Origin: Terriglobia bacterium
GTDB lineage: Bacteria > Acidobacteriota > Terriglobia > JAJPHL01 > JAPKYU01
Assembly (NCBI GenBank): GCA_965206645.1
Contig: CBDBKE010000003.1
Span: forward strand, 96,001 to 160,000
Direction of reading: 5' to 3'
DNA length: 64,000 nucleotides
The notes below the pieces were generated by a model, which saw nothing but the letters and a program-made list of their open reading frames with translations, was not told the DNA's origin and did no database searches. The stretch's first letter is position 1. Every line of letters begins with the position of its first letter. The translations under genes and the position numbers were made by a program. This document shows, in pieces, positions 2,698-63,959 of this stretch.

Positions 2698-2940
2698 ATG
2701 CATAAATGCCCCCATTGCGGCGAGCCTGGAATATCAACGATCAGAAAGTTGTGCCTGGGACCTGGGATGCCAGCAATCTGCAAAAACTGTCGGAAGAAAG
2801 TTGGCGTGCCATGGCGAACTATGTGGTTTATGGTTCCGTTCTTGGTTCTCTATCTCCTAGGACAAGCTGGGTTGGCTTTCGTCTGTTTCTTGCTGGCGTG
2901 CTACATCCACCTGAAGTGGATTCCCTTGATCCGAAAGTGA
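2698..2940 (+). CDS. Small CxxC...CxxC zinc-ribbon membrane protein
   Basis: CPHC and CKNC followed by two hydrophobic helices. Confidence 0.65.
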   Translation: MHKCPHCGEPGISTIRKLCLGPGMPAICKNCRKKVGVPWRTMWFMVPFLVLYLLGQAGLAFVCFLLACYIHLKWIPLIRK

Positions 2941-3295
2941 GAGCAACACAGATTCAGGACACTACCAGTAGCGCTCCCCCGGGACTGCGCATGGCTATTC
3001 CCTTCCGGGAAACGATTGGCCAAGGGCACAGCCTGCGGGGTCGCATGTCTTCTGCTTCCGGCGAATCTATCGGGACTGAAGCTGCTCCCGGTGTTGGGCA
3101 CTCGCCACTGAGGATTTCGGGAAATGGAGTTCGGCCACCTTGCCGGTCTTGCCGGTTTTTGACAGGCACTGGCGACGCGCGCTAGGCTCAGGTTGGCGGA
3201 AACAGCAATGGGCTCTTCTGTCCTCAGCGTGGCCACTTCCCAGTTGGGGGCATGGGCTATGGTTTACAATAGGGCAAGCCGCTGCCGGTGTTTGG

Positions 3296-5533: not shown

Positions 5534-6619
5534 ATGGAACGTTTGCAGTCGGACGGCAAACTGCCTGAGCAGATGCAGGCTGCCGTCTATCGTGGGGAAG
5601 GACGTGTGCTTTTGGAGCAGGTGCCGCGCCCGAAGATCGGCCCCGGCGAGGTGTTGGTGCGCGTGGCCGTCTGCGGCGTTTGCAACACAGACATAAAGAA
5701 GATCACTGCCGACTTGCTGCCTCCGCCGCGCATCTTCGGACACGAGACCGCCGGCACCGTCGTAGCCGCGGGCACCGGTGTAGACCACCTTCGGGTCGGT
5801 GACCGCGTGGTGGTTTTTCATCACATCCCGTGCGGTGACTGCTTCTACTGCCGCAGGCGCCTTTATGCTCAATGCCCCACCTACAGAAAGGTGGGCGTCA
5901 CCGCCGGCTTTGAGCCCAGCGGCGGCGGCTTCGCCCAATACGTGCGGGTCATGGACTGGATTGCAACCCAGGGCACGGAGAAAATCCCGGACGGCGTCAG
6001 CTTCGAGGAAGCGTCATTCGTCGAGCCGATCAACACCTGCCTGAAGGCGCTGAAGACCGCCGGCCTCAGCGAGGGGGAGTGCGTGCTGATCCAGGGCCAG
6101 GGGCCGATCGGCGTGCTACTGCTTTTACTGGCGCGACGCCAGGGGGCCGAGGTGTTCGTCTCGGACCCGTTAGACGAGCGGTTGAAACGGGCCTCGGAAC
6201 TGGGAGCCGCGGCCATTTTCAATCCGCGGCGGCTGGAGGTGTCGGCGGCAGTGCTCCCCTTGACTGGAGGGCGGGGGGTGGACTTGGCAATTGTCGCTGC
6301 TCCCGCCCCCGATCTGCTGTCGGAGGCCCTGCGCGCGGTTCGGCCGGGTGGCCGCGTCTTGCTGTTCGCCCAGACAGCGCCAGCCGAGCAGGTGCCCGTG
6401 CCCACTGCCGCGATTTGCGTGGAAGAGAAACAGATTCTGGGCAGTTACAGCGCCGATTGGGATTTGCAAGCCGAGTCGGCGCGGCTGGTGTTTGAGCGGG
6501 AGCTATCGGTGCAGGAATTGATCACGCACCGTTTCTCGCTGTCGGAAATTGATTCCGCGATCCGGTTGGCGTCCGATCCCCAACCCGACTCGCTCAAGAT
6601 CGTCGTCAAATGCGTCTGA
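5534..6619 (+). CDS. Zn-dependent medium-chain dehydrogenase
   Basis: CGVCNTD, GHE, CxxCxxC...C, GQGPIG. Confidence 0.9.
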   Translation: MERLQSDGKLPEQMQAAVYRGEGRVLLEQVPRPKIGPGEVLVRVAVCGVCNTDIKKITADLLPPPRIFGHETAGTVVAAGTGVDHLRVGDRVVVFHHIPCGDCFYCRRRLYAQCPTYRKVGVTAGFEPSGGGFAQYVRVMDWIATQGTEKIPDGVSFEEASFVEPINTCLKALKTAGLSEGECVLIQGQGPIGVLLLLLARRQGAEVFVSDPLDERLKRASELGAAAIFNPRRLEVSAAVLPLTGGRGVDLAIVAAPAPDLLSEALRAVRPGGRVLLFAQTAPAEQVPVPTAAICVEEKQILGSYSADWDLQAESARLVFERELSVQELITHRFSLSEIDSAIRLASDPQPDSLKIVVKCV

Positions 6620-6632
6620 GGCAGCTACCACC

Positions 6633-7670
6633 GTGACGAAACGAATGATGGCCGCCATCCTGTACGGCAAGGAAAACCTCCGCATCGAGGAGGTAAACGT
6701 GCCGCGGATCGGCCCGGATGAAGTGCTGGTGAAGATTGAGACGGCACTCACCTGCGGGACCGATCTGAAAGTCTATCGTCAGGGCTACCACGCCCGTATG
6801 ATCGTGCCCCCGGCTATTTTCGGGCACGAATTAGCTGGGGTCGTCCAGGAAGTGGGCGAGCAGGTGGAACACTTCCGGGAAGGCATGCGGGTCGTCGCCG
6901 CGAATTCCGCCCCGTGCAACGACTGTCTGTATTGCGGCAAAGGCCTGGAAAACCTCTGCGAGCGGCTTCTGTTCAATAACGGCGCCTACGCCGAATTTAT
7001 CCGCATCCCCGCACCGATAGTACGGAAGAGCCTGCTGCGGATCCCGGACCACATCAGCTACCGGGATGCCGCGCTGCTGGAACCGCTGGCCTGCGTGTTG
7101 CGCGGCCTGGAGGAAACTGGGCTGCGGCAGGGCGATTCGCTGGCAATCATCGGCCTGGGGCCGATCGGGCTGATGTTCGTGCGGTTGGCCAAGCTGCGAG
7201 GCGCTTCCGTCGTAGCTGTGGGCAAGCGTCCCACCCAAAGGCAGGCCGCGCTGCGCATGGGAGCGGATGAGGTGATTGACGTCAGCCAGACCGACGATCC
7301 GGTGGGCGCCGTCCACCGCCTCCACTCCGAGGGCGTGGACGTGGCGATCGAGGCCGTAGGTAGCTCTCTCACCTGGCAGTGGGCTGCCGGCATGGTTCGT
7401 CGCGGGGGTACGGTGAACTTGTTTGGCGGTTGTCCCAGCGGCACCACCGTCGAGTTCGACACTTCGCTGCTCCACTACTCGGAAATCACCCTGCTCGCCA
7501 GCTTTCACCACACACCGTATTACATCCGGCGCGCCCTGGACTCCATTGCTGCCGGCGAGATTTGCGGCCAGGATCTGGTCACCGGCGAAGCGCCCCTGCA
7601 GGAGTTGCCCCGCGTTTTACGCCACATGATGAATCGCAACGGCGACCTGAAAACCGCCATTCTGCCCTAG
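6633..7670 (+). CDS. Zn-dependent medium-chain dehydrogenase (tandem paralog)
   Basis: TCGTD, GHE, CNDCLYC...C, GLGPIG; start GTG 6633 or ATG 6645. Confidence 0.9.
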   Translation: MTKRMMAAILYGKENLRIEEVNVPRIGPDEVLVKIETALTCGTDLKVYRQGYHARMIVPPAIFGHELAGVVQEVGEQVEHFREGMRVVAANSAPCNDCLYCGKGLENLCERLLFNNGAYAEFIRIPAPIVRKSLLRIPDHISYRDAALLEPLACVLRGLEETGLRQGDSLAIIGLGPIGLMFVRLAKLRGASVVAVGKRPTQRQAALRMGADEVIDVSQTDDPVGAVHRLHSEGVDVAIEAVGSSLTWQWAAGMVRRGGTVNLFGGCPSGTTVEFDTSLLHYSEITLLASFHHTPYYIRRALDSIAAGEICGQDLVTGEAPLQELPRVLRHMMNRNGDLKTAILP

Positions 7671-9025: not shown

Positions 9026-9954
9026 ACCTGCCCGGAGAAACACGGCCCTCACTGGCCTACTCCTACAGGTATTGCGCCCGCGTAGCCCGCCGGGAGGCGC
9101 GCAACTTCTATTACGCGTTCCTGGTGCTTCCGCACCAGAAGCGCCGCGCTTTCTGCGCCGTCTATGCCTTCCTCCGCCACAGCGATGACATCCCCGACAA
9201 CAACGATCCTCACCAAGACCTCGCGTCGCGCCGCGGCTTGCTGGAAGCCTGGCGGAAACGTCTGGAAGCGGCTCTGGAAGGCGACTACGGCGACAACCCC
9301 TTGCTGCCCGCCTGGCATGACACCGTACGCCGCTACCGCTTGCCGCCCCAGTACTTCTTCGAGCTGATCAAGGGTGCGGAGATGGACCTGGACGGTGTGC
9401 GCTTCCAGACCTTTTCAGAGCTGTACCAGTACTGCTACCGCGTGGCCGGAGTGGTAGGTTTGATTTGCCTGCACGTCTTCGGCTTTAAGACAGCAGACCG
9501 GAAGGAAGCCTGCCGGCTGGCCGAAGCCTGCGGCATCGGCTTCCAGTTGACCAACATCCTGCGCGACCTGCGCGAGGACGCGGCCCGCGGCCGCGTCTAC
9601 CTGCCTGAAGAAGACCTGGCGCGCTTCGGCTATTCCCGCCAGCAGCTGGGGGCCGGGGTGAACAGCGAGGCCTACTACCGTCTGATGCGTTTCGAAGCAG
9701 AGCGAGCCCGCCAGTACTACCGTCAGGCGGCGGCCCTATTGGAAATGATTTGCCTCGATTCCCGGCCCGCGCTGTGGGCCATGATGGCGCTCTACTCTGG
9801 CATCCTGCGACGCATGGAAACCTTGGGTTTCCCGATGCTCCAGCGGCGGGTCGAACTGAGCGCGATGGACAAGCTCGAAATCCTGGCGCGGGCCTCGTGG
9901 ATGCGCCTGAATCACGGGGGCAGGGGTCCGTTTCCGGCGCCGCTTCTGGGATGA
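9022..9954 (+). CDS. hpnD: Presqualene diphosphate synthase HpnD
   Basis: NFYYAF, DDIPD, YCYRVAGVVG, QLTNILRDLREDAARGRVYLP; overlaps hpnC stop. Confidence 0.9.
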   Translation: MNLPGETRPSLAYSYRYCARVARREARNFYYAFLVLPHQKRRAFCAVYAFLRHSDDIPDNNDPHQDLASRRGLLEAWRKRLEAALEGDYGDNPLLPAWHDTVRRYRLPPQYFFELIKGAEMDLDGVRFQTFSELYQYCYRVAGVVGLICLHVFGFKTADRKEACRLAEACGIGFQLTNILRDLREDAARGRVYLPEEDLARFGYSRQQLGAGVNSEAYYRLMRFEAERARQYYRQAAALLEMICLDSRPALWAMMALYSGILRRMETLGFPMLQRRVELSAMDKLEILARASWMRLNHGGRGPFPAPLLG

Positions 9955-55195: not shown

Positions 55196-55550
55196 TGACG
55201 TGACCGGGTTTTTTTGTACCAGGTGAAATGAGAGAGAATTCACCTGAGAAGGAGCCGCGATCATGTCGACGAAGAGGTCTAAGCCGGAGCAGGTTGTAAA
55301 CCTCCTCCGGCAGATCGAAGTGGAGACTGCCAACGGGAAGACCACGCCGCAAGCCTGCCGGGATGCTCAGATCACGGTGCAGACCTACTATCGCTGGCGG
55401 AAGGAGTTTGGCGGGCTGAAGCTAGACCAAGCGAAGCGGCTGAAGCGGTTGCTGGCGGAGCTTTCCGTGGAGAAGCAGGTTTTGCGGGATGTGTGGCGCA
55501 GGGAAACTTCTGAGCCCTGAGCGGCGGCGTTGTGCGGTGGAGCGGGCCGG
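55196..55550 (+). mobile_element. IS3 left-end remnant with OrfA
   Basis: TGACGTGACCGG...TTTGTACCA; OrfA 55263-55520 homologous to 49318-49596 with an internal deletion. Confidence 0.85.
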
Positions 55551-55635
55551 GCTCCGCCCTTGACACCGTTTCCACTAGCCCTGATAATCTCCCCATGTAT
55601 CCGCAATTCCGTTTCCTAGGCAAGGAGGAGCAATA

Positions 55636-55953
55636 ATGGGGCTAGTGGGCAAGTTCTCTTTTATCGTCGGACTGGTGATTGCTGTGGCTGGAGGCTTAGG
55701 CTTTGAACAGGCTTGGTTTGGCTGGGTACTTGCAGTACTCGGCCTGATCGTCGGATTCTTGAATATCAGCAACAAGGAGGGTCAGACCTTCCTCTTAGCG
55801 GCGATAGCGCTGATCGTAGCGGCCAACGCCGTCGGAGCGATCCCCTACGTCGGGGAGGGGACGACCCGGATCATCGCAAATCTCGTGCTCTTCCTGGGGG
55901 GCGCGGTCTTGGTCGTAGCGGTTAAGAGTCTGTTCGCGGTAGCGAGAGACTGA
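55636..55953 (+). CDS. Small four-helix membrane protein
   Basis: LGLIVGFLNI..KE..FLLAAIAL; AAGGAGG RBS. Confidence 0.8.
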   Translation: MGLVGKFSFIVGLVIAVAGGLGFEQAWFGWVLAVLGLIVGFLNISNKEGQTFLLAAIALIVAANAVGAIPYVGEGTTRIIANLVLFLGGAVLVVAVKSLFAVARD

Positions 55954-56251
55954 AGTCGCTCTGACGCGGGCGTCATCGAGTCCGGAAAGCTTTCTCGCGA
56001 AAGCGGCGTTCTCACCGAGTCGCTTCCAGCGCCGCCTGAGCCGCGGTGTCCTGGTCATTTGTGGAGGCGTGTGCGGAACCGATTAGCGCTGCACAAAGGT
56101 ATCGCCAAGCGAATCAATACTGCGACACCGTTTCGCAACGACGAAGTCCTTGAAAACCCGTCTGGGCCGGATCGTTGCGTAACCGCTCGTTTTGTGCAGT
56201 ATCTCCGGCCTTCTCCCCAAACGACCGGTAGTGTCTCAGTAGGTACCAGAC

Positions 56252-56729
56252 TCATTCGTCGAACTTGATCTGGTCGGAGTTCTGAAATTCGGCGAGGCCG
56301 CGAACCCGGCGGAAAAGTGACAGCAGGATCTTCATTTGAACAACCGGATTGTCGGTGAGCCGACGGAGATCATCCATACCCTTGAAACCCATCGCAGTGC
56401 CCAGACGTTTAGCGGCGTCTTCCGCAAACTTGAGTTCTTCGAGATTCAGTTCAAGATCGGCCCGCCGGCGAAGCAACTTTCGCTCTCGAGCATGCGTGGA
56501 GATCTGATGGTACGTCTGGTCCGCTTGCCTGATGCTAGTGCAGACATGTCGAACGAGCGCGCTGATCGCCAATGCACTTGAGAGGAAAACCCCAAAATCG
56601 ATGTAGCCTGGAGACTCGTATTTGATAGCGACGATGCGAGGTCGATATTCCTCCGGGACCGAGACTCGAAGGGATTCGTAGAAACCGACGGCACTCCACC
56701 CACCGGCCCACGGAAACACTTCGAACGCG
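56252..56729 (-). pseudogene. Hypothetical protein, 5' end cut by the IS at 56730
   Basis: Coding-like FPWAGGWSAVGFY...IKYESPGYIDF reading frame is open up to the IS end. Confidence 0.55.
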
Positions 56730-58098
56730 TGTCCCTGGCGAATTGCTAGTTTACGGCCTAATTCCTGGGTTTAGCGGTTCTTGCTAAGATGCTGAGATGC
56801 GCAATCTCGTTATCCTTTTAGTCCATGTCATGGCTACTCTTACCCGGTTCTTGGGTCCGGGTGGCATTCGCTCTGTGATCGCCGAGTCCGTTCTCGCCAA
56901 GCAACAACTCCTGATCCTCAATCGTTCGCGACAGCGGTCACCCAATCTACGCACTTCAGATCGCCTAGTCGCCGGCCTGTGTGCTCTCCTCATCTGCCCC
57001 GCCCGCCTGATCCGCTCAGCAATCGTGCTGAAACCTTCGACTCTCTTGAACTTCCACCAGGTTATGAGGAATCGAAAATATCGCCTGCTCTTCTCCTCCA
57101 AGTACAGAGGTAAGCCCGGACCAAAGGGGCCCAACAAAGAACTCATTGAAGCCGTCGTCCAGATGAAGCAACGCAATCCCGCCTGGGGCTGTCCGCGAAT
57201 TGCTAAACAGATTGCCTTGGCTTTCGACATCCCCATCGACAAAGACGTTGTTCGAAGGATTCTCGCCAGCCACTATCGGCCGAAAAAGGACTCCGGTGGT
57301 CCATCCTGGCTGACCCTCATTGGCCACATGAAGGACAGCCTCTGGAGTATAGATCTGTTCCGGTGCGAATCGGCCACGTTGCGGACCCACTGGGTCTTGG
57401 TCGTCATGGATCAATACACCCGCCGGATCATTGGGTTCGGCGTCCACGCCGGAACTGTCAATGGCGTCGCACTTTGCCGCATGTTCAACCGCGCCATTCG
57501 ATGGCAACCCTGTATGCCCAACTACCTCAGCTCCGACCATGATCCCCTGTATCGGTTTGGGCAGTGGCAAGCCAATCTGCGGATCCTGGAAGTGACCGAA
57601 ATCAAAACCGTCCCCTATGTTCCCCTGTCCCATTCCTTTGTGGAACGGCTGATCGGCACGATTCGACGCGAGTATTTAGATCGCACGTTGTTCTGGACGA
57701 CGGCGGACCTGGAGAACAAGCTGCTCGATTTCAGGACATATTTCAATGCGTATCGCTCGCACACTGGACTGGAAGGGAGAACGCCTGATCCAGTCACGCC
57801 TATACCACGACCAGTCGCCAGGCTCCATTCCTATGGATGGCAACGCCACTGCAGAGGCCTCTATCACACCCCAATGGCTGCCTGATTCTCCAAAGACTGG
57901 TGCTCCCTGTGGTAACCGGCGGACATCGGCAGGCGGGCACTTCCTACGAAACCATTCGCTCTTTGAGTTTGTCAACGCGGAGCGGTTGTCTGATCTGATT
58001 GTTTCGCTGCTACCGAGGGTACTCCGCCAGTGTGCACTCGCCTAATTGGGGCAGCGGTCACGGGTAGAATCGCTCAACATATCAATTCGCAATGGACA
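56730..58098 (+). mobile_element. IS with rve integrase-core transposase (IS481/IS3-like), TGT...ACA ends
   Basis: IRs TGTCCCTGGCGAATTG / CAATTCGCAATGGACA; CDS 56797-57885 (NPAWGCPRI, SIDLF, SDHD, VERLIGTIRRE, RSHTGL). Confidence 0.88.
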
Positions 58099-58174: not shown

Positions 58175-58249
58175 TGGAGCCGACGGGGGGACTTGAACCC
58201 CCAACCCCCTGATTACGAATCAGGTGCTCTACCATTGAGCTACATCGGC
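58175..58249 (-). tRNA. tRNA-Thr(CGT)
   Basis: GCCGATGTAGCTCAATGGTAGAGCACCTGATTCGTAATCAGG...GGTTCAAGTCC...CGTCGGCTCCA; anticodon CGT, encoded CCA; own promoter TGGACA-18-TATGAT at 58288-58259. Confidence 0.96.
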
Positions 58250-58321: not shown

Positions 58322-59236
58322 TCAGTGAGGCGAGTCCCAGCGGAGGCCGACCGCATAAGCCATCGCATAGTGGAGCGTGTCATGGAATGCGGGCGACAGG
58401 TCGGTCAGTACGCGGCCGTACCACCGACGGGGTCGGCCGGGAGAGCGAAAGCAGGAGCCAGGCTGCAGCATCACTAACCGGCCCTTGAAGGGCATCGAGT
58501 CGGCGGCACGCGCGGAGCCTAGCCGCGGATACTTGACCAGCGTGTTCCACCAGCCGTCGGTCGGATCGCTCTCGTCCGGGACGAAGTGGCTGAGGCTGAC
58601 GAAGGCGTTTTCGAACGGGAGCGGTTCCAGCCAGTCGCAGGTTTCGGCCGGCCCCAGTACTTCGAAAGCGCCTCGACCGATCGCGCGGCGCTTCCCGAAC
58701 CCGGAGCGCCCCAGAGAGCGCAACAGCGTGCCCAGCCGCTCTAGCCACTCCTCGTCAGCGCGGACGTAAAGTGACACGAAGCGCTCCTCCTGCGGGACCT
58801 CAGGAAGCCAAGTGTACTCTTCGGTTGCAAACGGGACGGGACCAGCGCCGTCACGCGGAATCGACGCGTGCGTGGGGCGCAGGGTGAGCCACCAGTGCTG
58901 CCGCGGCAGCTCTGGTGGATAGCGTTGACCCTCCCGGACGGCCACGAACTGCTCGCGAGTGAGCCAGCGCGCCGACTGCCATTCGTTCGCTTCAGCAGCC
59001 GCGCCGGCGTTACCGTCGGGAACCGCACATAGCGGGCGCGGCAGCAGGTCGGCGGGAGCGGCGTCGGAGAGCAAGAAGGGCGGGGGCCCCTGGCGGAACC
59101 GTCCGAGCAAGCGGCTGAGGGCGCCTTCTCCGGCGCTGTGGGCCAATTCCCAACACAGCGCGCCGAACAGTGTATCAGCCTGCCAGGGTGTAGCCCAAGG
59201 AGCCAGTGGCCGAAGGCAGAAGCGCGCCGATTTCAT
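58322..59236 (-). CDS. csm4: Type III-A RAMP Csm4 (Cas5 group)
   Basis: TPWQADTLFGALCW, PFLLSDAAP..LLPRP, GFGKRRAIGRGAF, SLSHFVP, PGSCF, HYA.AY. Confidence 0.88.
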   Translation of the reverse strand: MKSARFCLRPLAPWATPWQADTLFGALCWELAHSAGEGALSRLLGRFRQGPPPFLLSDAAPADLLPRPLCAVPDGNAGAAAEANEWQSARWLTREQFVAVREGQRYPPELPRQHWWLTLRPTHASIPRDGAGPVPFATEEYTWLPEVPQEERFVSLYVRADEEWLERLGTLLRSLGRSGFGKRRAIGRGAFEVLGPAETCDWLEPLPFENAFVSLSHFVPDESDPTDGWWNTLVKYPRLGSARAADSMPFKGRLVMLQPGSCFRSPGRPRRWYGRVLTDLSPAFHDTLHYAMAYAVGLRWDSPH

Positions 59237-59315
59237 AAGAATAGGGCAGGCACTTCCGCCTGCCCAAAGATGCACTGGGGCTGTCGAGCTTTGCTAGTTG
59301 GCGGCAAGGGCGGCT

Positions 59316-60434
59316 TCATCCGGGAAGTTCGGGTGGCTGAGGCGAGACAGGAGGGTCGGCGGCGGTAGCGGAGCGGTCTTCCTTTGTCGAACGGATAACA
59401 CCCGACTCATCCGTAAAGAAACTACGAGTGCCCGTCTTCCTGTATTCGATCGGACTCGCAGAGACTTGGTAGGCGTCCAGAGTGCCATCGCCGTCATTGT
59501 CACTGGCCACGTGCTCGAAAACGTAGCAGTCCTTTCGTCCGCCAGCTAGGTCGGCAAACAGCAAGTCTGCCCCATCGGGCCCCGGTTCGGTCAGCGCAGC
59601 CGGGACACCACGCGAATATGTGGACATGTAGGTTATGCAGGTAATGTTAGTGACTCGCAGGTTGCCGACAGCCATAACTTCGTTGGATGGTATCCCCAGC
59701 TCGGGGAACTCTTCCACCAGCTCTTGGAATACCAAACCAGCTATCGGCCGGAGCCGCGCGGCAACGACAGGAAGCGACTCCGAAATAAGCCGTGGTTGCA
59801 CTTTGACAAAGCTTTGGCCGACAGGGGATTCGTAAAACTCGGCAAGGGTTTTGATTTCCTCGGCGGTGAGGTGCTTGTCATATATGGAAATCAGAACGTC
59901 ATGAATCACGGCGAACAACTGTGGGGTGAGCTTTTGGTAAAAGGCGCTCATTATTTCCTCGGCTCGTCCGGGCGAAATATACTTCTGTAGACGCTGCTTT
60001 AGTGACTCGCCTGTGTACTTAGATAACTCCTGCATCATGCCCGCAAACTGTTGTTCGCCGCCGGGCGCATTTATCAGACGACGGATGTCGGCTTCTTTGG
60101 AAGGGCTGACTTCCCGTTGTGATGAGGCATCAACACTTTTCCGGGCGTCAGGCTCCGCCGCCACGGTGGCCTGTGCGCGCGCATATTCCTGGGCTCCAGC
60201 CTTCTTTAGCAGTTCAACGGCGCCGGTGAGGTCTTTACTCACCGCGAGGCTTAAGGCTGTCCGTCCCTTCTTGTCTTTTGCATTGACGTCGGCACCGTTA
60301 GCCAACGAAGCCTTGACGGCAGCGGTGTCACCCTTCTTTGCCGCCTCAATCAAGTCTTGATTGATATCTCCGGCATTGGCCAAGAGCGGAATCAGCAGGG
60401 CAATCAGCGAAAGTGCAATCCGTGTAGGTGTCAT
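59316..60434 (-). CDS. Secreted chimera: ankyrin repeats + DUF2059-like + pilin-like C-terminal domain
   Basis: Signal peptide; LIEAAKKGD...GADVNAKDKKGRTAL; IYDKHLTAEEIKTLAEFYESPVGQ; NEVMAVGNLR...TGTRSFFTDESGVIR; own promoter TTGACT-17-TAGCAT at 60532-60504. Confidence 0.75.
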   Translation of the reverse strand: MTPTRIALSLIALLIPLLANAGDINQDLIEAAKKGDTAAVKASLANGADVNAKDKKGRTALSLAVSKDLTGAVELLKKAGAQEYARAQATVAAEPDARKSVDASSQREVSPSKEADIRRLINAPGGEQQFAGMMQELSKYTGESLKQRLQKYISPGRAEEIMSAFYQKLTPQLFAVIHDVLISIYDKHLTAEEIKTLAEFYESPVGQSFVKVQPRLISESLPVVAARLRPIAGLVFQELVEEFPELGIPSNEVMAVGNLRVTNITCITYMSTYSRGVPAALTEPGPDGADLLFADLAGGRKDCYVFEHVASDNDGDGTLDAYQVSASPIEYRKTGTRSFFTDESGVIRSTKEDRSATAADPPVSPQPPELPG

Positions 60435-60583
60435 ACTTGCGCCCCTTTGCCGACTGTACATGAGAGTCTGGCCAATCATTGGAAGGGCCCCTTTTTACCG
60501 CCCATGCTACGCCCCGGCCGCAGGCGAGTCAACGCGACGACCCGGCCGGTCGCGCCGGTGGTCTTTTGCCTGCCGCACTTAGT

Positions 60584-61252
60584 TCATACCGTCACGCTCT
60601 CCAGCGTCATGGGGTCCACGCTGATGTTTTCAAAGCGCACCTGCCCGGAGCCCCGGCTGGCGCCGGCGCCCAGCGCTCCAATCTCTTGAATCAGCCCCAA
60701 CCCTTTGCGGACAAACTCCAGCATCTTGACCGGCTCATCGCCGTCGTAGACGTGAATCAGGATTTCCATCTGGAACTCCGCGTCCCAAACGCGCTCCTGC
60801 CAGCGGGGATGATCGGCGGTCCCTCGGTCGCGATCCACCAGGTTCTCCGCCTTCTCCTCGACGAGCGAGCGGCCGGCAGCCTCCAGCTCGTGCAGCTTGC
60901 GGCCGGACTCGGCCGTCAGCGGTGCGTCGCGCACCAGGATGCGCGTGGGAGAGGTTTCGGCCTGAGGCCGCCTGTGGGCACCGAAGAGAAGGCACACCAG
61001 GCACTCCTTCTGGCCGCAATTGCAGGGGTCGCCGTTCCGACCCTTGCCTTCCACCTTCTCCAGCATGGCGCGCAGTCGGCCTTTGAGGGTGGAGCCGGGA
61101 ATGTAGGGCTCACCGTTAATGGGATTGCGGATGATGGTGAAGTCAGCCAAACCGCTCTCTTCCAGCCAGCCGGTGTGGCCTCCAATGCGCAACCCTCCAT
61201 TGGGGACGCGGATCAGCCCGCGCAGGCGCAGGCAGCCAACCAGTTTCTTCAT
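60584..61252 (-). CDS. csm3: Type III-A RAMP Csm3 (Cas7 group)
   Basis: GLRIGG...D..IIRNP..GEPYIPGSTLKGRLR, CNCG..ECLVCLLFG, PTRILVRDA, EKAENLVDR, PR.QERV, LGAGASRGSGQV. Confidence 0.93.
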   Translation of the reverse strand: MKKLVGCLRLRGLIRVPNGGLRIGGHTGWLEESGLADFTIIRNPINGEPYIPGSTLKGRLRAMLEKVEGKGRNGDPCNCGQKECLVCLLFGAHRRPQAETSPTRILVRDAPLTAESGRKLHELEAAGRSLVEEKAENLVDRDRGTADHPRWQERVWDAEFQMEILIHVYDGDEPVKMLEFVRKGLGLIQEIGALGAGASRGSGQVRFENISVDPMTLESVTV

Positions 61253-62040
61253 CGGCGCTCCTTTCTCTGATGCAGCAAGCCCCCGGCGTAGGCCACTACG
61301 GCCTGGAAGTGCTGGGCGAAGGCGAGCAGGGTCTTTTCGTCGGTGACTCGGTCCACGTTGGCCGCCAGGAACTGGCGGAACAACTCAGGGATCTTGCGGC
61401 GCGCCGCGCGTTCAGCGGCGAACGGCTTCAACTTCTGAATCTCGTTCAACACCAGCTCGATCGGCTGGCCGCCGAACCTGCAAGAGGCAACCGCGCGTTT
61501 GACGTGGTTGTGGAAGACGCGCAGCTGGTGCGCCGTAGAGTCCGTCGGAGGCCAGGCGACCCCCTGGGCAATCTGCTCGGCCCAGTGGGTGATCAATTCC
61601 GAACGCAGCGAGCCTGCCGGCGTGAAGTACCCGCCTTCCAGGTAACCGGCCGGCAGGCCGTGAACCATCACCGGAGCAATCCCGCGACCGGGCCCACGTT
61701 CGCGGCCCCGGGCCCCGGGCGGCCGGTCGCGGCGGGGCGGCCGCGCTCGCTCGGGCACTGCGCGGTGCTCGGCCGTCTCCAGAGCAGCTGCTGCGGTCTC
61801 GGCCGGTTTCTCGCCGACCGGTTTTGCGGAGCTTGGCTTCTCGGCGACTTCCCCTGCTTTGGTCGCCGCTTCGGCGGTGCGCTCGGTGCGCACCTCGGCA
61901 ATGCATTCGGCGCAGAGCTTGTGTTGTGGCCGCGCCGGGCGGAACATCTTGCCGCAGCGAGCGCAGGCTTTTTCCGCCGGCGGCTCTGGCGGTTCGGACT
62001 TCACGCCCGCCTTACGAAGGGCATCTTCCATACTCCCCAT
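61249..62040 (-). CDS. csm2: Type III-A small subunit Csm2 with N-terminal zinc finger and low-complexity linker
   Basis: C-terminal AHQLRVFHNHVK...KLKPFAA...FRQFL...FAQHFQAVVAY; N-terminal CARC...CAEC. Confidence 0.85.
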   Translation of the reverse strand: MGSMEDALRKAGVKSEPPEPPAEKACARCGKMFRPARPQHKLCAECIAEVRTERTAEAATKAGEVAEKPSSAKPVGEKPAETAAAALETAEHRAVPERARPPRRDRPPGARGRERGPGRGIAPVMVHGLPAGYLEGGYFTPAGSLRSELITHWAEQIAQGVAWPPTDSTAHQLRVFHNHVKRAVASCRFGGQPIELVLNEIQKLKPFAAERAARRKIPELFRQFLAANVDRVTDEKTLLAFAQHFQAVVAYAGGLLHQRKERR

Positions 62041-62055
62041 AATCGTAATCCAAGA

Positions 62056-63651
62056 TCAAGTGGCGGCGTCCAAGGATGCGTACTCCACTAGAAATTCTAT
62101 CCACGTCCGGTCGGAATTTTCATCATCCTTTAGCAGGCGTCCAGCCCAGGCCCGCGCTGGACGGTGCTTCAGGCGGGGGTCCCGGACCGCCGCGGCCAGC
62201 AGCGGGCGCCCGCGAGCTTCCCCTCTTCGGCTGGAGACGCAGCCTTCGGCCAGGCGGCGCAGCCAGGCCCGGGTGACGGCCCGCCGCTGAAGCCAATCGG
62301 CCAGCGCTTTTGCGGTTTTGAGCAACGAGGCCACCCGCCCCCACTCAATCGAGGTTCCGAAGGCGTACAGACGGTTCCCGCCCGCGTCCTTGGCTTGCCG
62401 CATGGCTTCGGTGGCCAGCTCGACGCCGGCGCGCAGGGTCGCGTGGGGCGGCAACAAGCTCAAGCCGGCCGAGAACGTTAATCCGTCGCCCACGAGTGCC
62501 TGGAAATCCTGCTCGAGACGCAGCGCAAGCTCGAGCGTGTCCTTCCAGGGTCCGATCAGCAGCAGGTCATCGCCGCCGCCAAAGACCGGGAAGACCAGTG
62601 GGAAGTCGCTTTGCAGCAGGTGGTGGAGATGTTCGCCAAAGAAGCCATCCAGCAGTCGACTGAGCGCCACACTCCGCTCCGGATCCCCTACCAGGGCGGC
62701 GAACGCCAGGGCAGCACGGTCCGCGTCAGCGCAAAGATAACCCAGCACCTTCTTGCTGCCCCCGGCCGGAGGAGCCAATTCCTCAAGCCTGGCCGGATGC
62801 CCGTTTCGTGCGGGCAGGCGGCGCAACAGCGGCCAGGATTCACTATCGAGGCGCAATTGAGCTGCAAACGCATCTGCCGGGGGCGAAAACTTCAGACCCA
62901 AGCCTGGGCCGGGCAGGTCGGCTTCCGGCTCCGGGCAAAACCAGGAGCTTTCGATGTCAGGCAGGCGAGCGGCGAGCTCCTGGTCGGCGGCGCAGTCCTT
63001 ACATAAAGTTTCCTCATCCCGAACCTGCACAGAAGTCACGGTGGCGCAGCCGGAACACAGCCCGGTGTCTGCGCCGGCAGGGTCAACAAAGGCCCGCCCG
63101 TTCCAACGCAAACCGATGCGCAGGGCCCCTTCCAGCGGTTGCCGGCGGCGTTGCCTAAGGCGCTCTGCCAATTGGTCCCAAGGCAACCGGTCGCCTTCGC
63201 AGATCGCGCCAGCCAAATAAAGTTCGAGTTCGCCTGCGGGGACCCACTGTTGGAACAACCAAATGTCAAATTCGCGCTGGAGCGATTGAAGGGTCTCTTC
63301 CCATCCTGCCTTGGCGGGCCCCACCAACAAGAATCTGCTCGCGGCACGAAGTAGGCAAACCAGACCCAAGCGCTCGGTCAAGCGCCGCGCCAAAAGCTCG
63401 CCGAGCACTGCCGTGCGGAACGAGCGCGCGCGAAGCCGTTGGGCGGCGGCTCCCGTCGCCGGAATCGGCCGGATGACATACCGCTGAACGCCGCTCAACA
63501 TTCCCTCGACCACCAGGTTGCCGGCGCGGACCTCCGCAATCGGGGCCACCTCCGCGGGCAGCGAGCTTTCTCCGCGCCAAATGGCAGCGAACTTAGGCAA
63601 GCCTCGCTGGACTTCCCCTTCTGCCGTCGCCTGCTCGAGTTCCGGTTCCAT
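62056..63651 (-). CDS. cas10: Short Cas10/Csm1 lacking the HD domain
   Basis: LSGVQRYV...LRARSF (Palm1), CSGC...CKDC, LGYLCADAD, ALSRLLDGFF, GGGDDLLLIGPW, LTFSAG (Palm2); only 531 aa. Confidence 0.88.
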   Translation of the reverse strand: MEPELEQATAEGEVQRGLPKFAAIWRGESSLPAEVAPIAEVRAGNLVVEGMLSGVQRYVIRPIPATGAAAQRLRARSFRTAVLGELLARRLTERLGLVCLLRAASRFLLVGPAKAGWEETLQSLQREFDIWLFQQWVPAGELELYLAGAICEGDRLPWDQLAERLRQRRRQPLEGALRIGLRWNGRAFVDPAGADTGLCSGCATVTSVQVRDEETLCKDCAADQELAARLPDIESSWFCPEPEADLPGPGLGLKFSPPADAFAAQLRLDSESWPLLRRLPARNGHPARLEELAPPAGGSKKVLGYLCADADRAALAFAALVGDPERSVALSRLLDGFFGEHLHHLLQSDFPLVFPVFGGGDDLLLIGPWKDTLELALRLEQDFQALVGDGLTFSAGLSLLPPHATLRAGVELATEAMRQAKDAGGNRLYAFGTSIEWGRVASLLKTAKALADWLQRRAVTRAWLRRLAEGCVSSRRGEARGRPLLAAAVRDPRLKHRPARAWAGRLLKDDENSDRTWIEFLVEYASLDAAT

Positions 63652-63959
63652 CTTCCAGGGGGACGATGCGTGTCACGACAGTTGAACACGACAGGTGAAA
63701 AAGCACTAAGAGCGGCAGTCTATCCGAGAGACCGGGCTTTGCAAGCCAATTATAATCGTGCCCGAGGAGCCATCTCATGGATGCATCTCGTCTAACAGGG
63801 TCGGGTGCCTGTAAGCCTTCACTGCTTGACTCCTGCACAAGAACAGACGCACAATCCCCGCCAGATGGCCTGCTAGAAGCTGGATTCTCGCCTTTCGCAA
63901 TTTTGCCTGTGAGATCCCGCGATGCTAGTCCCTGAATCCTAAAAGCTAGGGAAGCGAGA

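Follow-up and report, generated by a model that had tools for sequence, protein, structure and literature searches.

INTRODUCTION

CRISPR-Cas systems of type III are known as patchily distributed, adaptive, signaling defense systems, and to our knowledge it is effectors of types I, II, IV, and V for which exaptation has been documented. None of the exaptations listed in an excerpt of PMC8730458 is of a type III effector complex. Here we describe a group of cas genes in a 64,000-nucleotide (nt) stretch of DNA from Terriglobia bacterium GCA_965206645.1 (hereafter the window, meaning the whole stretch that was analyzed; window coordinates are positions within it). The window carries genes for Cas10, Csm2, Csm3, and Csm4 on its minus strand between 58322 and 63651. 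Our preferred reading, to which we give an even chance, is that these genes form the effector half of a reduced, split CRISPR-Cas system, III-A-like in type and with a single guide, that is fixed and vertically inherited in one Terriglobia order.

The closest described systems are the canonical type III-A systems of Staphylococcus epidermidis, Streptococcus thermophilus, and Thermococcus onnurineus (6ifn, 6iqw, and 9zs2), with which the locus shares orthologous genes in the order cas10-csm2-csm3-csm4, a Csm3 Asp and a Cas10 GGDD motif that align to the solved structures, and a Cas6-type repeat with an 8-nt tag. Unlike in those systems, no HD domain, Csm5, Csm6, adjacent Cas6, array, or cas1/cas2 was found in the window's genome. 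In addition, about 387 kb separate the locus from cas6 and a single repeat, Csm2 has a zinc-ribbon extension, and the system is vertically fixed rather than patchy. By its sequence, it is classified as a Csm (III-A-like) system. Reduced variants of type III have been described before: according to an excerpt of PMC12669027, types III-G and III-H share with it reductive evolution, the loss of cyclic oligoadenylate (cOA) partners, the lack of adaptation, and a CRISPR RNA (crRNA) presumed to be provided in trans. However, they keep an apparently active HD domain, with an inactive Palm domain and no Cas7 Asp, whereas the present system shows the reverse, having no HD domain and an intact Asp. The same excerpt describes a III-A2 variant without Cas11; III-A2, III-G, and III-H do not fit the system described here. 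The Cmr (III-B) system of Vibrio metoecus that works with NucC also has an HD-less Cas10, as an excerpt of PMC8682760 reports, but it depends on cOA and NucC and has arrays, whereas no effector was found here and the order shows decay of the cyclase motif. Finally, CreA, CreR, scaRNA, and type I mini-arrays likewise have an ectopic, partly degenerate repeat with a promoter and a fixed spacer, conserved beside a cas gene. Such cr-like RNAs are known from types I, II, and V, where they work on promoters in DNA through partial matches, whereas neither an array nor a target was found in the window's genome.

RESULTS

Genomes compared

The window's genome (G000; its contigs are cited as C3 and C4) is assembled in 4 contigs totaling 4.41 Mb with 97.9% completeness. 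The comparison set consisted of 13 genomes, drawn from the window's family (f1), a second family of the same order (f2), and, for two genomes, other families. Extracted loci carry L-numbers (L110 is from G000; L019 and L111 are from G001; L021, L022, and L025 are from G008, G007, and G009, respectively).

The effector genes of the window

Five open reading frames (ORFs), of 531, 263, 222, 387, and 317 amino acids (aa), lie on the minus strand between 58322 and 63651. An initial annotation of the window had proposed four Csm-like ORFs without internal stops, and these indeed score above the curated cutoffs and are uninterrupted (62056 to 63651, 61249 to 62040, 60584 to 61252, and 58322 to 59275); it had missed a fifth ORF between csm3 and csm4, which is described below. 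The cas10 (csm1) gene (62056 to 63651, minus strand) encodes 531 aa and matches TIGR02578 with 200.4 bits (cutoff, 170) and PF22335 with 74.2 bits. From residue 46 onwards, the protein aligns to positions 230 to 691 of the 753 positions of TIGR02578, and because the match begins at position 230, Cas10 lacks an HD domain, as had been proposed. Palm1 is preceded by only about 45 aa, and nothing but intergenic DNA separates cas10 from a divergent pyruvate kinase gene upstream. In alignments to solved Csm1 chains, the GGDD motif and the Palm2 Asp pair are in place; the four-Cys zinc finger is kept, and the Palm1 sequence GDFSGIQ is replaced by GMLSGVQ. The short Cas10 clade to which this protein belongs spans 487 to 660 aa.

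The csm3 gene (60584 to 61252, minus strand; 222 aa; TIGR02582, 134.1 bits; cutoff, 90) encodes the Cas7 backbone and RNase subunit. Its Asp37, noted in the initial annotation as an Asp at the usual catalytic position, aligns to the Asp of the iDnP motif of Csm3 in 4qts and 6iqw, which we take to be the catalytic residue (D32, D33, and D36 in model systems). The product of csm2 (61249 to 62040, minus strand; 263 aa), the Cas11 small subunit, matches TIGR01870 with 33.0 bits (cutoff, 30.6) and PF03750 with 40.2 bits, both confined to residues of about 150 to 252. The approximately 150 N-terminal residues form an extension with an MGSxxDA motif, a CxxC-x16-CxxC zinc ribbon, and an Arg/Pro/Gly-rich linker, of which the motif and the zinc ribbon are conserved across the order. 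Csm4, a Cas5-type protein, binds the 5' tag of the crRNA jointly with Cas10. The csm4 gene (58322 to 59236, minus strand; TIGR01903, 90.2 bits; cutoff, 55) has its longest ORF from GTG 59275 (317 aa). In relatives the protein begins with MKSARF or MNV, and PDLC01494 matches the product with 194 bits, residues 14 to 314 covering profile positions 1 to 296 of 297. On these alignments, ATG 59236 (Met14) is most likely the true start, not GTG 59275.

A distant cas6 gene and a single repeat-guide unit

The initial annotation regarded the module as standing alone, with neither Cas6 nor an array nearby. That absence holds for the neighborhood only, and the effector genes look functional and are conserved; elsewhere in the genome, there is a cas6 half of the system that includes one solo type III repeat. 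On the same contig, about 387 kb from the csm operon and flanked by housekeeping genes, a 343-aa ORF (C3:546733-547764, minus strand), a divergent cas6, matches PF10040 with 54.1 bits (cutoff, 25). Coordinates of cas6 and the unit refer to C3, and those of the unit are also on the minus strand. Directly 3' of the cas6 stop codon lies GGTATAAT, with a -10-like TATAAT, followed by AGTG and then by CCCCC-GAAGAAGA-GGGG. The repeat hairpin within it, CCCC-GAAGAAGA-GGGG (C3:546711-546727), is the remnant of one CRISPR repeat. It is followed by the tag ACTGAATT (8 nt, ACUGAAUU, ACUGAAnU; C3:546703-546710), a single-stranded, spacer-like segment of 24 nt (C3:546679-546702), and a perfect 20-bp hairpin (C3:546611-546678). 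The unit folds with a minimum free energy of -60 kcal/mol (z = -4.05). Its hairpin and tag core is identical to the repeats of the arrays in L031 and L034, two relatives' loci described below.

Homologues of the L031 Cas6 occur in 9 of the 13 genomes, G000 included (f1, 5/6; f2, 3/4; other families, 0/2), and the ratio of nonsynonymous to synonymous substitution rates (dN/dS) of cas6 is 0.19 to 0.32. The 21-nt core CCCGANGAAGAGGGGACTGAA is present in exactly one copy, without mismatches, beside cas6 in each of G000, G001, and G003; G004, G006, G009, and G010 have variants with 2 or 3 mismatches that retain CCCC-N8-GGGG-AC(U/C)(G/A)A. A TAnnnT box lies 4 to 7 nt 5' of the hairpin in all seven units. 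Past the tag, four f1 genera whose Cas10 proteins are only about 50% identical share a similar sequence (e.g., ...GTTGCCnGGGATGTnTGTATTGACTTTGGATTGCTTCCAACGCGCG), which takes in the spacer-like segment as well as the 20-bp hairpin, and RNAalifold recovers both stems, of 4 bp in the repeat and of 20 bp beyond it. In f2, G009 and G010 carry mini-arrays of a repeat, a spacer, and a degenerate repeat, with unrelated spacers. No unit was found beside cas6 at G007, G008-C3, or G010-C147. In wider searches for the unit, genome_contigs returned only G001, G004, and G006, and metagenome_contigs returned nothing. Further core matches in G011 and G012 and second ones in G009 and G010 were dismissed, as they have no hairpin and are chance-like (a reversed pattern gave 0 to 1 match per genome).

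On the opposite strand, the neighbor of the unit is rpoD (NF004208, 663 bits; cutoff, 555), with dnaG before it. Unit and rpoD converge in all four f1 loci that have this flank (G000, G001, G003, and G006); in G006, cas6 lies elsewhere and the 20-bp hairpin starts 3 nt past the rpoD stop codon. Thus, as for cr-like RNAs, an ectopic repeat in one copy is found at cas6, at the 3' end of rpoD, or at both in these four genomes. A 658-aa ORF beside cas6 proved to be a spurious antisense frame of rpoD. In G000 and G001, a degenerate repeat-like stretch, GGGTGAAGGGGACTGCC (L110, about 9505 to 9525, minus strand), lies approximately 185 nt past the solo repeat and may be the fossil of a former array end. 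Between dnaG and rpoD, there are seven tandem copies of the 15-nt sequence AGCTAAGCCTGGTTG (L110, 7418 to 7557, equal to G000:C3:544417-544556).

Conservation and inheritance of the csm genes

The short Cas10 is present in all three other genomes of the genus and in 9 of the 10 other genomes of the order (f1, 5/6; f2, 4/4). In a wider sample of the class Terriglobia, 18 of 401 genomes had a Cas10 match at an E value of 1e-20 or below. Ten of these belong to the order (G000 included), three have the short form outside it (G123, G196, and G262, i.e., 3 of about 390 sampled genomes), four have a canonical Cas10 with frames of 835 to 871 aa, and the last is G115. The gene order cas10-csm2-csm3-csm4, for which the initial annotation had suggested looking in related genomes, is constant in every locus long enough to show it, and synteny of the locus with thiI is kept within the family. 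No array was found in the fetched flanks of the order's csm loci (0/9).

In pairwise comparisons among G000, G001, G003, and G005 by the Nei-Gojobori method, dN/dS was 0.20 to 0.30 for cas10, 0.22 to 0.28 for csm2, 0.10 to 0.17 for csm3, and 0.15 to 0.30 for csm4, and low values persist even where dS is saturated (e.g., G000-G005). A maximum-likelihood tree of 25 Cas10 sequences supports the short forms (100/100), the monophyly of the order (100/99), f1 (100/100), and f2 (98/98). On the strength of these trees and rates, the csm module is judged to be vertically inherited, following the taxonomy, and to be neither relic nor mobile. Conservation is uneven along the complex. The Csm3 Asp is kept in all seven order members for which that N-terminal segment was recovered, the four zinc-finger cysteines of Cas10 are invariant, and the glycine-rich loop of Csm4 is conserved. 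In Cas10, Palm1 is altered in every f1 member, and GGDD is kept in four of nine order members (G000, G001, G006, and G009) and replaced in the other five (G003, G005, G007, G008, and G010), with GGSN in G003, a member of the window's genus. The Palm2 Asp pair is also intact in G000, G001, and G009. The statement in the initial annotation that Cas10 keeps GGDD is therefore true of G000 and misleading for the order.

In four metatranscriptome runs of one study, 30 to 44% of the sampled operon words were present, and RNA contigs with 0 to 2 differences lie on cas10, csm3, csm4, and the intervening fifth gene at a depth of about 1 to 10, for which DNA carry-over is possible. Parts of the operon that have no RNA contig in some runs should not be taken as silent.

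Relatives with complete systems

A profile built from 10 of 22 short Cas10 proteins, those more distant, identified nine loci (L028 to L036), a sister clade of the order's modules, in other Terriglobia metagenome-assembled genomes (MAGs), labeled Bryobacterales, Bryobacteraceae, Solibacter, or Terriglobia only, with a short Cas10 of 40 to 47% identity. In all nine, the four genes are arranged as in the window, and none has csm5. Their Cas10 proteins belong to the same clade of short forms (100/100), and their repeats are of the same family as that of the solo unit (CCCCGAnGAAGAGGGGACTGAAAC). They differ from the window's order in being sporadic and, for some of them, in having arrays (4/9), Csm6 or a CARF-like gene with Csx3, and cas6 or a linked type I-G system. 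Palm1 (GDF(S/A)GIQ), Palm2 (DxD), and GGDD are intact in all nine. True arrays lie 1 to 1.7 kb past csm4 in L030, L031, L034, and L035, with repeats of 36 to 37 nt that end in ...ATTGAAGC or ...CCCCGAnGAAGAGGGGACTGAAAC. The interval between csm4 and the array holds either Csm6 (PF09670) or a CARF-like gene below the cutoff together with a small gene weakly similar to Csx3/Crn3, and upstream of the modules are type I-G genes (Cas3g, 744 bits; Cas4g/Cas1g, 760 bits) or cas6. Since the nine loci share this design, some of them with arrays, an effector of four genes with neither an HD domain nor Csm5 is normal for what is a bona fide CRISPR clade, and the peculiarity of the window's order is the loss of everything beyond these four genes.

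In three Bryobacterales MAGs (L028, L030, and L035), Cas3g, a Cas3 extension, Cas2, and Cas4g/Cas1g are encoded directly upstream of the compact type III genes and Csm6; the array has 28 repeats in L030 and at least 6 in L035, and the L028 contig ends before any array.

Missing CRISPR parts and the source of guides and signals

We found no Csm5 in G000: TIGR01899 gave only an 18.4-bit cross-match inside csm3, and PF03787 matched csm3 only, in line with the absence reported in the initial annotation. RAMP matches number one per genome in 9 of the 10 order genomes that have any. No Cas6 of the PF01881 type was found in the 13 genomes, a false negative because the cas6 in question is of the PF10040 type.

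The genes could be half of an ordinary adaptive system that uses many crRNAs from an array and an adaptation module located elsewhere, unassembled or on another replicon. There is some precedent for this among relatives. On another contig, G008 carries a type I-D locus that includes cas6 and a broken cas1, along with an array of 14 repeats of the solo repeat's family; cas1 is intact in G007; and in Bryobacterales relatives a single array serves both type I-G and the compact type III genes. MAGs often lose arrays, and most type III systems use Cas6 in trans according to an excerpt of PMC12669027. Nevertheless, three array scans of G000, nearly complete as it is, revealed no array except for a relic of 3 repeats and 2 spacers that is type I-E-like. 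A Hamming scan with the relatives' whole repeats at 72% identity missed the solo repeat; apart from this copy, scans found no type III repeat of the relatives in G000. As for adaptation, G000 has no intact cas1, only a 41-aa piece with a stop codon, and no Cas1 match was obtained in G001, G004 to G006, G009, or G010. Furthermore, the spacer is the same across four genera, which is never seen in adaptive arrays. We regard an ordinary split system as decidedly unlikely. The initial annotation had raised the same possibility of a separated half; a cas6 half does exist, but it has one repeat, no ordinary array, and no intact adaptation genes.

Several other remnants, of a lost type I-E-like system, were noted in G000. 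The type I-E-like mini-array (C4:1993816-1993966) lies amid insertion sequence (IS) elements, and two solo repeats are found at C3:873543 and C4:467575, one of them with an AT-rich, leader-like flank. These were rejected, being of an unrelated repeat family; Cas6e and Cas7e were not found in G000, in a search whose controls responded only in Thermus. The Cas1 fragment is at C3:432293-432415. A scan for two-copy repeats in G000 yielded only IS ends and coding repeats, which were rejected.

A further possibility is that Cas10 makes a messenger that is recognized by a sensor from a family outside our searches. The catalytic residues point in this direction for some members, G000, G001, and G009 retaining GGDD together with the Palm2 Asp pair and G006 retaining GGDD, and an HD-less, cyclase-only type III system is known from V. 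metoecus, the NucC-linked Cmr described in an excerpt of PMC8682760. The distribution of these residues in the order points the other way, GGDD having been lost within the genus (G003) as well as in four further members and Palm1 being altered throughout f1. SAVED, Csm6-HEPN, Csx1-HEPN, and APE2256-type CARF domains were not found in G000 by profile search, although the SAVED, PF09651, and PF09659 controls were silent or weak, and PF09670 (Csm6) exceeded the cutoff in none of the 13 genomes. Because GGDD is lost in five of nine members and no cOA sensor was found, cOA signaling is unlikely as the conserved function, and we consider signaling through an unrecognized effector highly improbable.

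Candidate targets of the guide

No second site in G000 is as much as 78% identical to the guide or to its complement. Searches with the guide gave no match in viral_contigs, those in phage records did not exceed chance level (E = 2), and the predicted duplexes of the guide with the 5' leaders of csm, cas6, rpoD, or the gene between csm3 and csm4 were no better than those of shuffled controls. The spacer of cr-like RNAs typically pairs in part with the promoter or leader of a cas gene or with a toxin gene; in G000, neither pairing beyond chance with the csm and cas6 leaders nor a toxin gene was found. From the geometry of the locus, the sole fully complementary RNA available would be the sense-strand read-through past rpoD; the hairpin may equally be conserved as the rpoD terminator.

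These data also bear on a special case of our preferred reading, namely, a CreTA- or CreR-like circuit in which the solo repeat RNA directs Csm to silence a toxic or regulatory RNA. Since the guide RNA would keep that RNA silenced, cas6 and the csm genes would be hard to lose. Such a circuit would account for purifying selection on the effector genes and cas6 after the immunity parts were lost and while the HD and cyclase functions, which RNA binding and cleavage along a guide do not require, decay, as well as for the conserved position of the standalone repeat, and CreA RNAs likewise derive from ectopic degenerate repeats, according to excerpts of PMC9458426 and 10.1101/2023.03.03.530964. Against it stand the lack of an identified toxin candidate, the chance-level duplexes with the csm, cas6, and rpoD leaders, the lack of a second genomic site complementary to the guide, and G001, where an IS interrupts cas6 but the remaining parts show no evident loss. 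In addition, the known CreTA acts through DNA binding by Cascade and not through RNA cleavage. We think such a circuit improbable.

Flanks of the csm operon and neighboring genes

The fifth ORF of the interval (59316 to 60479, minus strand; 387 aa) has a signal-peptide-like N terminus and matches PF09832 (DUF2059; 57.9 bits) and ankyrin families. It is an unrelated insertion that interrupts the csm operon and lies outside the Csm system: csm3 and csm4 are adjacent in G001, the closest relative, and in G003, of the same genus, a Ser/Thr kinase-TPR gene occupies the junction. A promoter-like site (60532 to 60504) precedes the ankyrin gene, and a hairpin (59265 to 59244) lies just 5' of the csm4 start.

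The putative promoter region of the csm operon (63717 to 63754, minus strand) contains the TATAAT at 63749 to 63754 and a TTGCAA (63739 to 63744)-16 nt-TAGACT (63717 to 63722) pair. The pair, as TTGCAA...TA(G/A)ACT, is better conserved than TATAAT, being present in G000, G001, G003, and G005 and partly in G006. RNA contigs of three runs from the single metatranscriptome study end at 63688 to 63700, a weak hint only as to the promoter. The divergent pyruvate kinase gene begins at about 63960. On the other side, a tRNA-Thr(CGU) gene (58175 to 58249, minus strand) with a promoter-like site marks the downstream boundary and is not part of the Csm system; it was the sole match in an Rfam scan of the window region. 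The initial annotation had placed all three landmarks, the TATAAT, the divergent gene start, and the tRNA gene with its own promoter, correctly. Its suggestion to look for the same architecture beside tRNA-Thr in related genomes led to a different result, in that the tRNA gene adjoins csm4 within the genus only; this local synteny led us to reject it as a partner of the system. In G001 (L019), the 5' half of a tRNA-Thr follows csm4 (about 6600 to 6908), and the whole tRNA gene lies 3.9 kb away (2932 to 3006), which suggests that an island integrated into tRNA-Thr, an integration hotspot. Just downstream of the tRNA gene in the window, an IS-type element (55263 to 57885) has a short ORF with a helix-turn-helix and another for an integrase-core transposase of 362 aa, and RNA contigs of related copies are abundant.

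The csm leader (63652 to 63760, minus strand) was rejected as a structured RNA or guide, with a fold z score of +1.4 and conservation that stops at the promoter. It is near-identical in three species whose cas10 dS is approximately 0.8 and contains a 13-nt tandem duplication, TTCAnCTGTCGTG, that is single in G001 and is possibly an operator. In f2, a NarL/LuxR-type response regulator gene follows csm4 on the same strand in all three loci with that flank (L021, L022, and L025); the three proteins (from G008, G007, and G009) share 83 to 97% identity.

DISCUSSION

The reading of the locus as the effector half of a split single-guide system builds on gene identities, conservation and selection, homology of the repeat, and conservation of the unit, all of which were observed directly. 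The unit would be transcribed and processed, with Cas6 cutting at the base of the repeat hairpin and leaving the 8-nt tag. The Csm complex would then be loaded with this RNA, the tag being held by Csm4 and the HD-less Cas10 while Csm3 and Csm2 polymerize along the fixed guide, and a complementary RNA would be cut by Asp37 of Csm3. Because there is no acquisition, no DNase, and mostly no cyclase, the conserved output would be guide-directed RNA binding and cleavage and not adaptive immunity or cOA production.

A number of observations weigh against this interpretation. All genomes compared are MAGs, in which arrays can be missed, and absence here means "not found." Within the order, a frameshift breaks csm3 of G008, about 90 codons are deleted from the interior of csm4 in G005, and foreign genes separate csm3 from csm4 in G000 and G003. 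In G001, cas6 (L111, 10485 to 12974) is split by an IS1380-family transposase gene and a sugar-epimerase-like gene, with the solo repeat unit and csm genes remaining intact. The 14-repeat array beside the type I-D locus of G008 means that at least one order member may still be guided adaptively. As for the unit, none was found in G005 or G007, a consensus scan revealed neither a sigma-70 -35 box nor a canonical terminator, and its full-length Rfam match, CRISPR-DR32, stays below the threshold (19.6 bits versus 48; E = 1.1). Compensatory changes are seen in only 2 of 24 pairs among 5 sequences, and the 20-bp hairpin may be conserved for rpoD termination and not for guide function.

Many of these points would also be expected if a complete compact type III system had been inherited, had lost its array, Csm6, and adaptation genes, and were now drifting without function. 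The broken csm3 and csm4 genes, the IS1380 element within the G001 cas6 gene, the insertions at the csm3-csm4 junction, the loss of GGDD in five of nine members, and the degenerate Palm1 all agree with such decay, and an excerpt of 10.1101/2023.03.03.530964, which reports type III mini-arrays without positional conservation, an enriched Cas10 clade, or targets, judges them to be degraded repeats. The initial annotation had also considered a decaying relic, to be recognized by a dN/dS near 1. The values obtained are instead 0.10 to 0.30 for the csm genes, even at saturated dS, and about 0.2 for cas6. Across two families, 9 of the order's 10 other genomes have the module, and its tree agrees with taxonomy; the Asp of Csm3, the zinc finger of Cas10, and the glycine-rich loop of Csm4 are conserved; and the solo repeat keeps its hairpin, tag, and -10 box in seven genomes. 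Moreover, the two frame breaks may be assembly errors in MAGs that are fragmented or built from long reads. We consider functionless decay unlikely.

The initial annotation had weighed a complex that borrows its guides in trans, an exapted complex, and a separated half of a split locus, and each of these turned out to be partly right. A more specific proposal, which we put forward only tentatively, is that a type III effector was domesticated in one Terriglobia family, where a single genus-spanning guide, a lone repeat, and a lone Cas6 would serve a cellular, nondefense role. In its most specific form, which we offer jointly with that proposal and as no more than a possible extension of it, the complex would cut rpoD read-through or 3' untranslated-region RNA, with the guide acting as a cis-antisense RNA; alternatively, the genes might be kept by an RNA addiction circuit.

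Were either form of the domestication proposal true, this would be the first type III system known to be conserved with a single guide. In published full text, we found neither this Cas10 clade nor any conserved type III system with one guide described, a search that did not cover supplementary tables, which possibly list them. The minimal four-protein, Csm5-less, HD-less Csm complex comes with a natural single-guide gene and could serve as a compact RNA-targeting tool. For the order itself, an RNA-cutting Csm complex, Cas6, and one guide would have been inherited together, while the parts for adaptation, DNA cleavage, and signaling are gone or decaying, and this poses the testable question of what a CRISPR effector does when it is frozen on one guide.

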